A stretch of 64,000 nucleotides of DNA from an uncultured Roseburia sp. (GTDB taxonomy: Bacteria > Bacillota > Clostridia > Lachnospirales > Lachnospiraceae), in contig CAMWKH010000007.1 in NCBI GenBank assembly GCA_947174805.1, positions 10,345-74,344 on the forward strand, written 5' to 3'. The notes beneath the pieces were generated by a model that saw nothing but the letters and a program-made list of their open reading frames with translations, searched no databases and was not told the DNA's origin. Below, piece after piece: positions 39,851 to 45,506 of this stretch. Made by a program: the position numbers and the translations under genes. How positions within the stretch are numbered: the stretch's first letter is position 1; each line of letters opens with the position of its first letter.

Positions 39851-40837
39851 ATGGCAAAGTCTTATCATCAGAAGCTGAAAATACTTTATATTGCGCAGAT
39901 GCTGTTGGATAAATCAGACGAGGAGCATCTGCTCTCTACAAAAGATTTGATTGCAGGGCTCTCTGAGTACGGTATCTTAGCGGAGCGGAAAAGTATTTAC
40001 GCAGATATAGAGGCGTTGATGGAGTTTGGAATGGATATAGTAAAAGAGGAAGGCCGTTCGGGGGGCTATTATATTGCAAGCCGTCAGTTTGAGCTCCCGG
40101 AGCTAAAGCTTTTGGTGGATTCCGTTCAGGCATCCAAATTTATTACGGAAAAGAAATCCAGGGAGCTGATTGCCAAGCTGGAGACTCTTACCAGCCATGC
40201 CAACGGGGGCAAACTTCACCGTCAGGTGGTGGTGAATAACAGGAACAAAGCGGTAAATGAATCCATTTACTATAATGTGGACGCTATTTATACCGCCATG
40301 AATGATAATGTCCAAATCCGATTCCAATATTTTTCCTGGACACCGGATAAGAAAATGGCACTGCGCAGAGACGGGGAATTTTACCAGGTAAGCCCCTGGT
40401 TTTTAACCTGGGAGGATGAGAATTATTATCTTATTGCCTATGACGGAAAAGCGGATGTAATGAAGCATTACCGGGTGGACAAAATGCTGAAACCGGGAAA
40501 CACAAAGGAGAAGCGTCAGGGGAGAGAATTGGCGGAGAGCGTGGATCTTGCGGCCTATGCAAAGAAAACATTCGGAATGTTTGCGGGAAATGAGATGACG
40601 GTGGTTTTAGAGTGCAGGGAAGAATTGACAGGGGTATGTATTGACCGGTTTGGAACAGATGTAGCGATGCGAAGGACTGAGGAAGGAGGCATCCGCCTCC
40701 GGGCGGATGTTGCAGTATCCCCTCAGTTTTACGGCTGGCTGGCAGGCTTGGGGGACAGGATAAAAATCCTATCCCCGGAGAGTGTCAGGGAGGCCTACCG
40801 TCAGTGGCTGAACAATATTATACAGTCTTTAGAATAA
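39851..40837 (+). CDS. wHTH-WYL-WCX transcriptional regulator
   Basis: N-terminal HTH (ERKSIYADIEAL), VSPWFLTWEDENYYLIAYD...HYRVDKM WYL region, C-terminal ILSPESVR. Confidence 0.9.
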   Translation: MAKSYHQKLKILYIAQMLLDKSDEEHLLSTKDLIAGLSEYGILAERKSIYADIEALMEFGMDIVKEEGRSGGYYIASRQFELPELKLLVDSVQASKFITEKKSRELIAKLETLTSHANGGKLHRQVVVNNRNKAVNESIYYNVDAIYTAMNDNVQIRFQYFSWTPDKKMALRRDGEFYQVSPWFLTWEDENYYLIAYDGKADVMKHYRVDKMLKPGNTKEKRQGRELAESVDLAAYAKKTFGMFAGNEMTVVLECREELTGVCIDRFGTDVAMRRTEEGGIRLRADVAVSPQFYGWLAGLGDRIKILSPESVREAYRQWLNNIIQSLE

Positions 40838-41564
40838 AATGGAAGAAAAAGTACAGTAAAAGCAAATGTAAGGGATAAAAAGCGTAAAATATATATTTCA
40901 GGTCCAGTCCTCGTTTCCCGTTGTAAAATTTTACCAGCAGGATATCTATGAGGGCTGGACTTTCTGCTATATTCATAGCGGAAAGCCAGATTACAGACAC
41001 CCCCATGGCAAGAGTGCTGCTTCTATTCTGCCTAAATAGATAGATAAATACAATGGCCAGTACGCCCACAGCCCCATAGTCGGTATGCAGCAGCTGTGCC
41101 AGTATAATCCCGGCGATTAAAACGGCGCACTCCCATAAAAAACAAAGAAAGCCTTTTGATATTTCTTTGGCATGGTCCATAAGGGCAATCACGGAAAGTC
41201 CGATAAGGAGGGTAAAAAATACATTCTGATACTGCCAGTAAAACATTTGCCTGTTAAATGCCAAATCAAAGGGAATTTCGGAGAGAAAGGCAAAGAGTAA
41301 AAGCCGCAGGGCATATTTTTTCACATTTCGTGTGTGGGAGAAGCCTTCCACCAAAAGAAAGCAGTAAATGGGAAATGCCAGGCGGCCGATCCCCCGCATA
41401 ATATAGTAGGGCGCCATGTATCTGCTGAATTGTGTTTCAAATGCCACCACCCCTAAATGGTCGATAAACATGGTGACAATGGCGATTAGTTTTAAAGTAC
41501 TGCCGGACAATCCCCTGGCTTTCTCCTGTTGGGACGCCCTTTGGGCGGAATTAGTTTCTGACAT
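40818..41564 (-). CDS. TraX family membrane protein
   Basis: LKLIAIVTMFIDH, GRLAFPIYCFLLVEGF, LSEIPF, QNVFFTL, FYAFYPLHL. Confidence 0.88.
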   Translation of the reverse strand: MSETNSAQRASQQEKARGLSGSTLKLIAIVTMFIDHLGVVAFETQFSRYMAPYYIMRGIGRLAFPIYCFLLVEGFSHTRNVKKYALRLLLFAFLSEIPFDLAFNRQMFYWQYQNVFFTLLIGLSVIALMDHAKEISKGFLCFLWECAVLIAGIILAQLLHTDYGAVGVLAIVFIYLFRQNRSSTLAMGVSVIWLSAMNIAESPALIDILLVKFYNGKRGLDLKYIFYAFYPLHLLLLYFFFHFILKTV

Positions 41565-41880
41565 AGTAATCCTCCTGTTTTTTGTTTTTCTAATTCTATG
41601 AAATTAAGACAGGTCTTTTGATGAAATTCCAACCACGTCTTTTCAAAGGTAGATGTTCCTTTTCATGGATTCGATTTTCACTATTCCTCTTTTTTCAGTC
41701 TGAAGGATTCATTTCCCAGACAATAAAAATAATTTTAACATATGAATTAATTTTTGACCAGCGGAAATTTAATATTTGCAAAAGAAATACAACAGCGTTG
41801 TGAAGGCTCTTAAAAGGTGAGAAATATGCATTGACGCTGTTTTTACTTCAAGTTATCATGGTAAAAAGGAGGGGACGCAT

Positions 41881-42630
41881 ATGGTAATAGGAATTTGTGA
41901 TGACCTGGCCAGGGACCGTGAGCAGATTTATGATTTTTGTGAAGCTTTTTTTGCCCGCTGTGATATGGAACATCAATATCGGATGTTTTCCAGCGGGGAG
42001 GAGGTATTAGAATATTGTAAACAAAAAGACCAACAGCGGGTGGACCTGCTTTTTTTGGATATTGAACTGGGCGAGATTGACGGTATTCAGGTGAAAGACC
42101 AGATTTTACGGAAGGATATGGTGTGGAGAATTGTGTTTGTGTCCGGTAATCAGGATAAGGTGTTTTTATCTTTTGGGTTAAAAACGCTGGGTTTTTTGGT
42201 AAAGCCTGTGGTCAGAGAAGATATCTGCAAATGGGTTCAAGTGGTTTTGGAGGAATTGAAAGAAGATGTTATGATTGCCATTGCGGATTCCAAGACCGCG
42301 GAGGAGAGGTATGTAAGGCTGGAGGATATTGAATATTTTGCTGCGGAGGGCAATTACACGAAAATCGTGCTCCATACGGAGGAGGATTCCCAGGAGCAGT
42401 ATATTTTGGTTACGAAAAAAATCGGAGAGCTGGAGCAGGAGTACAGCAATTTTCCTATTTTGCGGGTACATAAATCCTATATGGTAAACCTGGAAAATGT
42501 TATGGACATCAAGGGGGAGATAACCATCAGAGACAGTGCGGACAGGATACCTATAGGAAGGACTTTTAAAGATTCCGTTAGGAAGAAGTATTTGGAATTT
42601 GGAAGGGAGAAAGTAAGAGGAAGAACATGA
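41881..42630 (+). CDS. LytTR family response regulator (AgrA-like)
   Basis: ICDD, LLFLDIE receiver, LVKP; LytTR IEYFAAEGNY...RVHKSYMVNL; promoter TTGACG-17-TATCAT. Confidence 0.95.
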   Translation: MVIGICDDLARDREQIYDFCEAFFARCDMEHQYRMFSSGEEVLEYCKQKDQQRVDLLFLDIELGEIDGIQVKDQILRKDMVWRIVFVSGNQDKVFLSFGLKTLGFLVKPVVREDICKWVQVVLEELKEDVMIAIADSKTAEERYVRLEDIEYFAAEGNYTKIVLHTEEDSQEQYILVTKKIGELEQEYSNFPILRVHKSYMVNLENVMDIKGEITIRDSADRIPIGRTFKDSVRKKYLEFGREKVRGRT

Positions 42631-43928
42631 GGGAGGATATCGTTTACCTGACATTGTATTTGGTTACGGAGATGATGAATTATCTTTTGGCTTACAGGGT
42701 TATTTTTCAGGCGGAGATTACCAGGGATAAGAGACGGTGGGCAGCAGGGATTGTTAGTTTATTGGTGATTCATTTTTTCATTATGGTTATGTACGGTGAA
42801 AAAACATCAGAGTCTGTCAGTGCTGTTACCATGATTATGTTGCCTCTTTGCATGCTTCAAAAGAAAGAAAAAAAGAATTTTATTATATATCCTTTCATCG
42901 TGATTGGCACATCTAATATTATGATAAGTGTATCATTTTTATGCGCTGTTTTATTTGAGGTATCAGAATTTAATATAATAGAAAATGATATCATAAGGCT
43001 ATTTTGTCAATGTATGCCAATTATAATGATGTTTGGATTAGATATGTATAGGAGGCACAAAAAGAAGAAATTAATTTATATTCAGTTGGGACGGCAGCAA
43101 TATATATTATTTTATATAGGAATTGTCTGCACCTATTTCATGATAAGCGCTTTGCAGGTTTTGTCTAAAGAGAATGCTTCAAAGAGTGTAATAAATGTTT
43201 GTGGGTTAGCAATTTCTTTTGCGTGTATCGTTTTTATATTTTTAATTCTTTGGCAGGGAATTGTGGTATACCGGGAAATTCAGTATAAAGAACGATGTGA
43301 GATGAATGAGCAATATTTGGAACTGCAGGCAGAACATTATCGGCAGCTTATGGCTCAGGATGAAAAAATGAGGAAATTTCGACATGATATGAATAGCCAT
43401 ATTAATATGCTAAAGTACTACTGTGAAAGCCAGCAGTATCCGGTGTTAAATAATTATCTTTCAAATATGGTTCGAGAATCGGCAGTTTACGATGTGGCTG
43501 TTTATACACGAAACCGCAGTGTGGACGCAGTTATCGCACCGCTGGCTCAGATGGCACAGGAAAAGAATATAAAAATCACATGGAACGGTATTCTTCCAGA
43601 ACAGACAAAAGTGGCTTTGTATGATTTGTGTACGATAATGTCCAATCTTTTAAAAAATGCCGTTGAAGCTTGTGATGAAGTACCGGAGGAGAATGAGCGG
43701 AAAATTGAAGTGAAAGTGGGAAGTTATAATAATCAGATTTTTTTGACTATTAGAAATACAGTAGCAAAGAAGGTGATAGTGGAAAATCAAAATTTAATCA
43801 CATCTAAAAAAGACAGAGACAATCACGGTATAGGAAGTCAGAATGTGAAAGAAGCAGTGGAAAAATATGATGGAACCATTCTTTACCTATGTGAAAATGG
43901 ATGGTTTGAAGTGAAAATTGGTATTTAA
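42627..43928 (+). CDS. AgrC-like multi-TM GHKL sensor histidine kinase
   Basis: About 6 TM, RKFRHDMNSH H-box, NLLKNAVEAC, NHGIGSQNV. Confidence 0.93.
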   Translation: MREDIVYLTLYLVTEMMNYLLAYRVIFQAEITRDKRRWAAGIVSLLVIHFFIMVMYGEKTSESVSAVTMIMLPLCMLQKKEKKNFIIYPFIVIGTSNIMISVSFLCAVLFEVSEFNIIENDIIRLFCQCMPIIMMFGLDMYRRHKKKKLIYIQLGRQQYILFYIGIVCTYFMISALQVLSKENASKSVINVCGLAISFACIVFIFLILWQGIVVYREIQYKERCEMNEQYLELQAEHYRQLMAQDEKMRKFRHDMNSHINMLKYYCESQQYPVLNNYLSNMVRESAVYDVAVYTRNRSVDAVIAPLAQMAQEKNIKITWNGILPEQTKVALYDLCTIMSNLLKNAVEACDEVPEENERKIEVKVGSYNNQIFLTIRNTVAKKVIVENQNLITSKKDRDNHGIGSQNVKEAVEKYDGTILYLCENGWFEVKIGI

Positions 43929-43951
43929 AAGTACGTATTTTAGATGAAAAG

Positions 43952-43984
43952 GCAGCACATCTCTCGGGAGGTGTGTTGTTTTTT
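43952..43984 (+). terminator. Terminator of the LytTR/HK operon
   Basis: GCAGCACATCTC-TCGG-GAGGTGTGTTGT followed by a T-tract. Confidence 0.8.
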
Positions 43985-44052
43985 GTCGTTCATACAAAAA
44001 AAGTGTCGTTCATACAAAGTAAATTGCTTTTTATCATAGAGGAAGATATTAT
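43984..44052 (+). promoter_or_regulatory. LytTR-type direct-repeat activator site plus promoter
   Basis: TGTCGTTCATACAAA twice, perfect (43984-43998 and 44004-44018, 20-bp period), ending 5 bp before TTGCTT (44024-29)-17-TATTAT (44047-52). Confidence 0.8.
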
Positions 44053-44093
44053 GAAGTTGTAAGCAAAGATATGTAGAAAGAGAGGTGTTAAAG

Positions 44094-44141
44094 ATGAAAT
44101 TTTTATGGTTGGACTATTGGTTTTTTTGGCCATTTGGATAA
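44094..44141 (+). CDS. Candidate 15-aa aromatic micropeptide MKFLWLDYWFFWPFG (or the 5' end of a decayed gene)
   Basis: AGAGGTG RBS about 6 nt before the ATG; first ORF with a good RBS after the repeat-linked promoter. Confidence 0.4.
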   Translation: MKFLWLDYWFFWPFG

Positions 44142-44344
44142 GCAGAGCGGTAAAGAGAAAACATGGAATACAACACACAGTTCTGAGTTTGACATAATAG
44201 ATATTTATGGTTCTCCCTCATTAACCATATATCAAAGGAACTAGTAAGTTGATTTTAGTTTAGAATCCTCAAAATAATGAACTTTATGCCATGTGTTTCG
44301 CTACTGTTGCTTTGTATGTGGAAAATGAAAGTAAATAGGTGATG

Positions 44345-44389
44345 AACAAGTGAGAGTGCCCATAGGTATGGGGCACTCTCATTGTTTTT
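44345..44389 (+). terminator. Strong intrinsic terminator closing the LytTR-target transcript
   Basis: AACAAG-TGAGAGTGCCC...GGGCACTCTCA-TTGTTTTT. Confidence 0.85.
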
Positions 44390-44558
44390 CAAAAAAGTCT
44401 TGCAAATATAGTTAAAAGGTTATATTCTTAATCCTATCAAAATACATAGGCCTTTGTATGGATACAAATGGATTCTTATGATTCACAGAAGCAGCGGTGC
44501 TGCGTCAGGCGTTTCGCCAAAGGTTTCCAATGACTAATTTTTACAGGAGGATTTGCTT

Positions 44559-45506
44559 ATGGAATATGCAAGCGGAGGAGTAAGCACAAAGAAAGGTACG
44601 TTTCGCAAACTGGAGGAATTAAATCTTTTAGATGATTTTCTCTTTCAGGAAATAGCATCAAGTCCGGAGGTGGGGGAAGAATTCTGCCGCATTTTGCTTC
44701 GGGTAGTACTTGGGAAGGAAGTACGGAAAGTAAAAGTAATTCCCCAGAGGGCGATACAGGGAGTGGATGTAAAACAGCATGGCATCCGCTTGGACGCCTA
44801 CATAGAGGATGTTTCCAGGGATGAAATAATGGGGGAAATGGAGATGTTTGATGCCCAGGTTATGCCGGAAAATTCGGATATATATGATATTGAGCCGAAT
44901 AAAATATATGAGAAGGAAAGGCTTCCAAGAAAGATGAGATATTATCATGGACTGATAGATACAAAACTTTTAAAAACAAGCGTAAACTATGAAAAACTTC
45001 CAAATGTGTTTATCATTATGATACTGCCCTATGACCCATTTGGGAATAAGCGAATGGTATATACCATAAAGAATCAGTGTGTGGAGGATAAAACGGTTTC
45101 ATATGAGGATGGTGCAGTGAAATTATTCCTATATACCAGGGGAACAGAAGGAAAACCTAGCCAAGATTTAATTGATATGTTAAAATATATTGAGGAATCA
45201 ACAGACGAAAATGTGAAGAACCAGGATATTAAACGGGTGGATGAACTGGTGAGGCATATCAAGGAAAGTGAGGAGGTGGGCATTCGTCATATGAAATCGT
45301 GGGAATGGGAAGAGTATATCAAAAGGAATGCATCGGAAGAGGGGCTGGCTCAGGGTTTAGAAAAAGGGATGGAGCGGGCGGAAAATAGATGTATTGTGAA
45401 TATGCATAAAAATGGTTATACGTTAAAACAAATAGCAGAAGTTATGGAAAAAAGCGAGGAAGAAATTCAGGCTGTTGTTAAAAGGGAGTTGTCGGTATTA
45501 CTATAA
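44559..45506 (+). CDS. Rpn family recombination-promoting nuclease / PD-(D/E)XK putative transposase
   Basis: LLDDFLF, GIRLDAYI, IYDIE, RYYHGLID, FIIMILPYDPFG, LFLYTRG, C-terminal GLAQGLEKG; ATG 44559 follows AGGAGG. Confidence 0.9.
   Translation: MEYASGGVSTKKGTFRKLEELNLLDDFLFQEIASSPEVGEEFCRILLRVVLGKEVRKVKVIPQRAIQGVDVKQHGIRLDAYIEDVSRDEIMGEMEMFDAQVMPENSDIYDIEPNKIYEKERLPRKMRYYHGLIDTKLLKTSVNYEKLPNVFIIMILPYDPFGNKRMVYTIKNQCVEDKTVSYEDGAVKLFLYTRGTEGKPSQDLIDMLKYIEESTDENVKNQDIKRVDELVRHIKESEEVGIRHMKSWEWEEYIKRNASEEGLAQGLEKGMERAENRCIVNMHKNGYTLKQIAEVMEKSEEEIQAVVKRELSVLL

Follow-up and report, generated by a model that had tools for sequence, protein, structure and literature searches.

Peptide signalling through membrane-bound histidine kinases is thought to need a precursor together with a dedicated processing and export enzyme, either AgrB or a C39 transporter, and, to our knowledge, leaderless signal peptides have so far been found only with cytosolic receptors of the Rgg type. 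Matching signal types and sensor clades are the pattern of the agr groups and of the com and blp pherotypes, and RNAIII and VR-RNA are regulatory RNAs driven by LytTR regulators. Here we describe a locus in a 64,000-nucleotide stretch of DNA from an uncultured Roseburia sp. (contig CAMWKH010000007.1, positions 10,345 to 74,344 of the forward strand; this whole stretch is called the window below), in which a LytTR response regulator and a GHKL histidine kinase are followed by two direct repeats, a promoter and a frame of only 15 codons, MKFLWLDYWFFWPFG. Since changes in the encoded micropeptide go hand in hand with changes in the kinase's sensor half, we think it most likely that the peptide serves this kinase as its own signal, leaderless and acting with positive feedback, a reading to which we assign a probability of about 0.6.

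Seventeen distinct loci or alleles, over which kinase identity falls from 85% down to 28%, show the order regulator, kinase, terminator, two boxes, promoter, Shine-Dalgarno (SD) sequence and tiny frame (Table 1). These were collected from kinase homologues of 200 genera of the family, from species representatives and from a large protein collection with its surrounding DNA, and further loci came from a metagenome scan for the box pair and a family-wide pattern scan. ATG and stop lie 13–16 codons apart in nine loci with 51–85% kinase identity; the frames of further relatives have 15–23 codons, and an N-terminal extension is present in none. The SD stands at the same distance from the frame in all relatives. 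Close relatives retain M-x3-W-x3-W-x2-W-P-F and the same peptide length, W5, W9, P13 and F14 being invariant in the seven nearest loci, and synonymous codon variants occur within the close clade at L6, D7, Y8/P8, F10, P13 and F14. The recurrent layout, the fixed length and the synonymous changes together argue that the 15-codon frame is a real, conserved micropeptide gene and no remnant of decay. Extreme hydrophobicity and a net charge of about zero mark the peptide, which contains no Cys or Ser and no GG motif. Eight of its 15 residues are aromatic, and not nine as had been counted in an earlier reading made from the letters of this DNA alone (hereafter the sequence-only reading). The same reading had suggested an uncharacterised signal peptide, an idea that has gained from the comparison, since the frame is conserved as a micropeptide gene and the comparative data tie it to the sensor domain of the kinase.

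It had also offered a decayed membrane-protein gene as an alternative, which has to be given up: no relative has an intact frame of ~80 residues, and the frames beginning MVGLL and ELYAMCF are not conserved. That the frame is such a remnant, or a leader in which stalling at Trp codons controls the terminator, is in our view close to negligible as an explanation. The T7 run within the frame could hide a frameshift, and three Trp codons out of 15, with a terminator following, recall trpL. However, L032 and L040 have no T7 run and keep the 15-codon frame and its stop, which excludes a frameshift artefact concealing frames of 34 or 49 residues, and no relative has a long frame. Moreover, the stop lies 210 nt ahead of the terminator and the downstream context varies, and the third Trp is Phe in L040 and the L007 peptide is devoid of Trp, against the invariance of P13 and F14 in the nearest loci.

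Table 1. Micropeptides encoded downstream of the kinase in the window and in related loci.
Locus	Kinase identity to window	Peptide
Window	reference	MKFLWLDYWFFWPFG
L034	85%	MKFLWLNPWFFWPFG
L035	78%	MKLFWLDYWFFWPFG
L061	not computed (kinase identical to that of L035)	MKLFWLNPWFFWPFG
L037	75%	MQLYWLDYWFFWPFK
L064	71%	MQLFWLDYWFFWPFKK
L065	70%	MKLFWLNPWFFWPFGK
L038	70%	MTLYWLNPWFFWPFGK
L032	72%	MMYYWTGLWRIWPFK
L040	60%	MLCCWIDLWFFFPFR
L041	57%	MLCFWKNHWVIWYWFH
L042	51%	MLCWLGWSWEFWL
L076	45%	MIASIDWSWLWKLFG
L005	41%	MPYGLNWDWLIGLITGNGGKEEE
L008	38%	MVFYICDLTDWLKWILGIHK
L007	31%	MLLIINFKFITSFLFGD
L060	28%	MFLAFGIDNIWKWLLGLGK

The link between peptide and kinase emerged from pairwise comparisons of close strains. 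The window and L034, which are clearly the same species, share 98.8% identity in the regulator, 99% in the kinase half and 97–100% at the DNA level across 3 kb, outside two divergent islands. The first island is the sensor half (70% amino acid identity; 61–88% nucleotide identity over 42700-43250), and the second extends from the promoter spacer through the 5' untranslated region to codon 8 of the peptide (77% nucleotide identity), where differences at codons 6–8 change the peptide from a DY to an NP type. Likewise, L064 and L065 have identical regulators (100%), 84% identity in the kinase half and 71% in the sensor, and carry DY and NP peptides, respectively; L040 and L041 are 94% identical in the kinase half and 59% in the sensor, and differ at 9 of 15 aligned peptide positions. 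A maximum-likelihood tree of the sensor half groups the DY loci (window, L035, L037, L064) in one clade with support 91/90 and the NP loci (L034, L038, L065/66) in another with support 96/94. The kinase-half tree follows the genome background instead, joining the window with L034 (99/97) and L064 with L038 and L065 (100/99). Sensor identity is about the same as kinase-half identity in pairs of the same peptide type, and lies 6–29 points under it in all 16 pairs of different type. With the small peptide-typed sample of seven distinct kinases, the observed contrast was reached by 1 of 35 labelings in an exact permutation. By analogy with the known groups, two peptide types with matching sensor clades in three genome backgrounds are a pherotype pattern.

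According to the model that we favour, the kinase and the LytTR regulator would be made from their own, probably constitutive, promoter, and the regulator would switch on the downstream gene through the two direct repeats, which are in phase with the -35 element. We infer that the 15-residue tryptophan-rich peptide, whole or trimmed, exits the cell by some route and that the polytopic sensor half of the kinase senses it. Once phosphorylated, the regulator would cause the peptide gene to be transcribed more strongly, closing a positive feedback loop of the kind known from agr P2, comCDE or plnA. The output of the circuit would be lineage-specific: one congener would use it for a mediterrocin-family bacteriocin, and more distant relatives for exporters or secreted proteins. 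In the window genome the peptide RNA is the only box-driven product, so its conserved 190-nt 3' domain would be the best candidate effector, similar to RNAIII, VR-RNA or SpoZ.

Several observations weigh against this reading. L061 and the DY strain L035 have identical kinases, yet the L061 peptide is of the NP type; six substitutions within 19 nt (L061:3451-3700) turn the peptide to NP relative to L035, and it looks as though the NP peptide was gained via a short recombination patch. Neither an exporter nor a processing enzyme is linked to the window locus. The peptide locus is the only box-driven target in the window genome, G407 and G417, that is, in three of the four carrier species of the genus, and a loop that produces only its own signal needs another output; a second target could sit in the part that is missing from the assembly, which is 92% complete. 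Finally, co-variation with the sensor would also be expected if the peptide acted within the producer's own membrane. As an observation in its own right, L061 may be a natural mismatched pair or a sign that the L035-type sensor accepts both peptides.

Action within the producer's membrane is the core of an alternative in which the micropeptide, induced by the regulator, is retained in the membrane and contacts the transmembrane bundle of the kinase, raising or damping its activity, with something else as the external stimulus. MgrB and SafA act on PhoQ as membrane modulators, and tryptophan-rich peptides partition into the membrane interface. An extremely hydrophobic peptide with no leader and no linked exporter is in line with such a feedback modulator, as is co-variation with the membrane sensor half, expected of a direct intramembrane partner, and the absence, in three of four species, of any box-driven target besides the peptide locus would fit a pure feedback loop. 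However, the small proteins known to modulate kinases have 30–65 residues and a transmembrane helix, and 13–16 residues are too short to span the membrane. Furthermore, two peptide types with matching sensor clades over three backgrounds bear the signature of discrimination between cells and not that of a partner in housekeeping feedback, and in the congener G401 the boxes also control a bacteriocin, the usual companion of cell-density signalling. We therefore regard a membrane-retained modulator as unlikely and prefer the peptide as the kinase's signal.

The regulator and kinase genes overlap (Table 2), and the sequence-only reading had called them an Agr-like LytTR/GHKL pair, in keeping with what the databases returned: AgrC is the top NCBIfam match of the kinase, near full length (45 bits against a cut-off of 500), AgrA is that of the regulator (44.7 bits, below its cut-off), and the AgrC kinase module of S. 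aureus (Protein Data Bank (PDB) ID 6e52, E 3.5e-8) is the sole PDB sequence match of the kinase. As the AgrC and AgrA matches are far under the cut-offs and the PDB match is to the AgrC module, we place the two proteins, from their sequences, in the AgrC/ComD/PlnB class of peptide-sensing pairs, as orthologues of no named member. That agrB and agrD are missing was also correctly noted: the locus contains neither, and no AgrB occurs in the examined part of the window. Whole-genome scans for box pairs and half-sites found no LytTR boxes upstream of the regulator-kinase operon, which is thus probably not autoregulated.

Downstream of the kinase, the elements listed in the sequence-only reading (two perfect 15-bp repeats with a 20-bp period, promoter, ribosome-binding site, 15-codon frame and terminator) are all present, some of them with coordinates shifted by 1–2 bases, and the geometry of the repeats fits the LytTR-type operator that it had proposed. 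In all aligned loci the distance from the first base of box 2 to that of the -35 element is exactly 20 bp, and relatives likewise have the boxes 5' of the micropeptide, two or in some cases three of them with a 20-bp period. The repeat pair goes beyond what chance would produce: a pattern search of the whole 3.1-Mb assembly at ≤3 mismatches identified it as the only one, and a half-site scan of the genome did not find a second credible pair, so the proposal that more repeats might be found by scanning the genome yielded nothing further; this uniqueness holds for the assembled part. The regulator would bind the repeats and, as far as can be read from the assembly, have one direct target. In the wider family, raw counts of TGTCGTT-N12-14-TGTCGTT were not above those of a reversed-pattern control, and only sites with the full repeated box and an A-rich spacer were taken as credible.

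Table 2. Features of the locus and related loci. Positions are those of the window unless a locus or contig is named.
Feature	Position	Strand	Description
TraX-family membrane acyltransferase gene	40818-41564	-	divergent from the regulator gene
Promoter of the regulator-kinase operon	41831..41859	+	sigma-70-like, TTGACG-17-TATCAT, 10/12 matches
Response regulator gene	41881..42630	+	249 aa; receiver and LytTR DNA-binding domain; PF00072 (Response_reg) 47 bits, PF04397 (LytTR) 52 bits
Kinase gene	42627-43928	+	433 residues; GHKL domain HATPase_c_5, PF14501 86 bits
Kinase sensor half	42627..43271	+	aa 1-215; ~6-7 hydrophobic/membrane segments; hypervariable among close strains
Kinase DHp and GHKL catalytic half	43272..43928	+	H-box KFRHDMNSH; AgrC-like HPK10 type
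Terminator of the regulator-kinase operon	about 43952..43984	+	hairpin and T-run, read from sequence
Two direct repeats	43984-43998 and 44004-44018	+	TGTCGTTCATACAAA; both perfect 15-bp, 20-bp period; predicted LytTR operator
Micropeptide promoter	-35 44024-44029; -10 44047-44052	+	TTGCTT, 17-nt spacer, TATTAT
Shine-Dalgarno sequence	44081-44087	+	AGAGGTG, 6 nt ahead of ATG
Micropeptide gene	44094-44141	+	MKFLWLDYWFFWPFG, 15 aa, no leader; predicted kinase signal peptide
Non-coding 3' domain	44142..44350	+	part of predicted micropeptide transcript; conserved core about 44185-44350
Promoter-like site in 3' domain	44249-44278	+	TTGATT-18-AATAAT
Tiny frame in 3' domain	44303-44359	+	MPCVSLLLLCMWKMKVNR / MPCVSLLLLCMWK
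Intrinsic terminator	stem 44351-44383, T-run to ~44390	+	12-13-bp GC-rich stem
Rpn-family (PD-(D/E)XK) nuclease/putative transposase gene	44553-45506		own promoter
Bacteriocin locus of G401	L055:1501-3031		bacteriocin 148 aa, NF052268 101 bits against cut-off 40
agr-like loci elsewhere in the genome	C5:~107.9-110.0 kb; C19:~47.5-50.5 kb; C3:~99.2-102.9 kb		outside the window

The genes placed under the boxes in relatives differ from lineage to lineage. The congener G401, which carries the L035 type, has a second, perfect box pair of period 19 ahead of genes for a mediterrocin-family bacteriocin and for a membrane protein with several predicted membrane passes (polytopic); regulation is not a topic of the published paper on mediterrocin. 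The L042 micropeptide MLCWLGWSWEFWL, itself without a double-glycine leader, is directly followed by a C39-peptidase ATP-binding cassette (ABC) exporter with an intact catalytic Cys motif (L042:2349-4777). At L007 (L007:2909-3257), MLLIINFKFITSFLFGD is followed by two small Cys-rich peptides of 29 and 35 amino acids with C-x-x-C-x-C-N motifs, possibly bacteriocins or precursors of ribosomally synthesized and post-translationally modified peptides. Boxes stand ahead of secreted or small membrane proteins in L004, L005 and L033. At L040 and L041 (L040:4670-6982, L041:4725-6967) the micropeptide transcript ends at its own terminator, and an XRE-type helix-turn-helix gene and a second LytTR regulator/GHKL kinase pair follow. 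Judged by analogy, bacteriocin, exporter and secreted proteins are the usual regulon of LytTR systems that respond to peptide pheromones.

Such neighbours also bring up the reading that the micropeptide is itself an output, a membrane-active toxin or antimicrobial akin to leaderless bacteriocins or to the phenol-soluble modulins (PSMs), with a kinase that senses another cue, or the peptide as well. AgrA directly activates leaderless PSM genes and drives hld, and nisin and plantaricin A are antimicrobials and inducers at once. Short tryptophan-rich peptides are often membrane-active, and here the micropeptide shares its operator with a bacteriocin in G401 and lies beside the Cys-rich peptides in L007 and the C39 exporter in L042. 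Nevertheless, known unmodified bacteriocins and PSMs cover a range into which a peptide of 13–16 residues with a net charge near zero does not fall, and no immunity gene adjoins the micropeptide gene. A pure effector would be expected to show no co-variation with the sensor domain, and the micropeptide is constant beside the kinase while the other box-driven genes vary. We hold an effector role to be quite improbable, and the signal role of the micropeptide is retained.

The predicted micropeptide transcript continues beyond the frame into a 3' domain with a conservation of its own. Between the window and L032, positions 44201-44389 are 78–82% identical, compared with 81% for the regulator gene, 74% for the kinase gene, 62% for the peptide frame and 33–41% for the spacers 5' of the boxes and 3' of the terminator. 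Seven distinct 3'-domain sequences could be aligned, in which one-base indels break every frame (including in L035), and no conserved frame could be established on either strand of the 3' domain in the relatives. A C-rich block, GGTTCTCCCTCATTA, is predicted to pair with AATAGGTGATGAAC, and RNAalifold yields a long hairpin, formed by GUUCUCCCUCAUUA..CCAUAU..CAAAG on one strand and CUUUG..AUGUGG..AAUAGGUGAUGAAC on the other. Nearly every pair of this hairpin is invariant, and only the terminator shows compensatory changes (G-C to A-U, two pairs). The element is single-copy in the genome and occurs in 3 of 27 species of the genus, window genome included, a fourth carrier retaining boxes and peptide only; 400 further genera of the family do not have it. 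In relatives that are more distant and still encode the peptide, its place is taken by a short unrelated 3' end (L040/41) or by genes (L042). An Rfam scan of the RNA at a permissive threshold gave only sub-threshold chance matches, and a duplex scan against 3230 start regions for targets of a small RNA (sRNA) gave best matches within the expected tail.

These comparisons indicate that the 3' domain, a non-coding part of the predicted pheromone transcript, is under constraint, and by analogy a role as regulatory RNA is plausible. The sRNA effector postulated in the sequence-only reading is borne out in so far as the 3' 190 nt are conserved as non-coding sequence within the genus; their loss in distant relatives, the near lack of covariation outside the terminator and the failure of any target to stand out speak against it. 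The domain also holds a promoter-like site, conserved in relatives, from which a separate RNA of ~110 nt with the same terminator could possibly be made. Near the 3' end of the domain, five of six relatives preserve a tiny frame in which some third positions have changed; it was rejected as a gene, as it has no SD and suffers a premature stop in L038.

If the RNA were the centre of the system, the 330-nt transcript would be a LytTR-driven riboregulator, the frame would be secondary or coupled to it through translation, and the kinase would receive its signal from elsewhere, for instance from an AgrD peptide. The domain's conservation over its flanking spacers with frame-breaking indels, the long conserved hairpin predicted with its C-rich strand, and the agrBD loci elsewhere in the genome are what such a view would expect, and the LytTR regulator RgaR, which drives the sRNA SpoZ, sets a precedent (PMC10602386). 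Yet the 3' domain is restricted to the close clade, and relatives at 28–60% kinase identity keep the peptide with other 3' ends. The protein-level constraint on the peptide and its sensor-linked types, the own kinase at each agrBD locus, the scarcity of covariation outside the terminator and the absence of an outstanding predicted target also oppose it, and we judge an RNA-centred system very improbable. What can be proposed, tentatively and with less confidence than the signal role as such, is a combination of both elements: a leaderless tryptophan-rich peptide of 13–23 residues would be the ligand of an AgrC-like kinase, with pherotypes shared across species, and the riboregulator domain of the pheromone mRNA would be the sole output of the circuit in the genus. 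If so, signal and effector would be the two halves of one 330-nt RNA.

Outside the locus, three complete agrBD loci are located on other contigs (Table 2); AgrB, an AgrD-like propeptide and a separate HPK10 kinase are encoded in every one of them, and a LytTR regulator adjoins two of the three. As an own kinase is found at all three agrBD loci, the window kinase is not needed as a receptor for AgrD, and its role as orphan receptor of an AgrD peptide is unlikely. If the window system is counted, the number of peptide-sensing LytTR circuits in the genome comes to four. A C39 transporter is encoded only once in the genome, on contig C4, and not in the locus. No Rgg-like regulator occurs among the flanking genes examined, whose families are TraX, WYL and Rpn, with one gene lacking a family match. 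The TraX gene was discarded as a component of the system, because its synteny is limited to the close clade and it is absent in L040/L041. The Rpn-family gene is intact in the window, L034 and L038, and truncated or decayed in L032 and L035.

A leaderless peptide sensed by an HPK10 kinase, if true, would join the two signalling schemes outlined at the beginning. It would also mean that many signalling genes of abundant gut Lachnospiraceae have been missed by gene callers, their frames having only 13–23 codons. The DY and NP types in three backgrounds provide ready-made specificity groups, and the mediterrocin-family bacteriocin under the boxes of a congener suggests that competition between gut commensals is under the control of such circuits. 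With one peptide, two proteins and one promoter, the system is small enough to be rebuilt.

We compared the window cassette with the described systems nearest to it. In full-text literature searches we came across no account of an HPK10 kinase that works with a leaderless peptide. The leaderless communication peptides (LCPs) exemplified by SIP-RopB of Streptococcus pyogenes and relatives are signals of mature length, and the paper on them mentions no histidine kinase or two-component partner (PMC10518010). The window peptide resembles them as an ultrasmall hydrophobic frame with neither secretion signal nor processing sites, located beside the gene of its putative receptor, which would control it. 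In contrast, LCPs are on the 8-residue scale, are re-imported and act on cytosolic Rgg/RopB receptors (PMC10518010), whereas the receptor predicted here is a membrane kinase and the peptides have 13–23 residues. PSMs and delta-toxin are also leaderless, hydrophobic and made from LytTR-dependent promoters, with hld inside a regulatory RNA, but PSMs are cytolysins that form amphipathic helices of 20–44 residues, are exported by Pmt, are not sensed by AgrC and do not co-vary with it.

The cassette also has much in common with the systems ComC-ComD-ComE, BlpC-BlpH-BlpR, PlnA-PlnB-PlnCD and SilCR-SilB-SilA of Firmicutes, in which a polytopic HPK10 kinase and a LytTR regulator are laid out for positive feedback, the -35 of the pheromone gene is immediately preceded by direct repeats ~20–21 bp apart, pheromone and sensor fall into pherotypes, and a bacteriocin belongs to the regulon, as it does here in the congener. 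Their pheromones, however, have a double-glycine leader, are cleaved and exported by a C39 ABC transporter and are usually encoded ahead of the kinase, whereas the window peptide has no leader and no linked exporter, is encoded after the kinase and is far more aromatic. With agr (AgrBDCA and P3-RNAIII, together with VirSR/VR-RNA and RgaSR/SpoZ) the cassette shares its nearest relatives, AgrC and AgrA, a hypervariable sensor with specificity groups, and a LytTR operator that drives a short RNA, here predicted, with a tiny frame and a non-coding domain, like hld in RNAIII. Unlike agr, the locus lacks AgrB and AgrD, its peptide offers neither Cys nor Ser for thiolactone formation and has no AgrD-like flanks, and the regulator-kinase operon is free of boxes; the peptide encoded by RNAIII, for its part, is a toxin and not a signal. 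In summary, the cassette would work like the Com, Blp, Pln and Sil systems and like agr, but it departs from each of them in the features by which they are defined.

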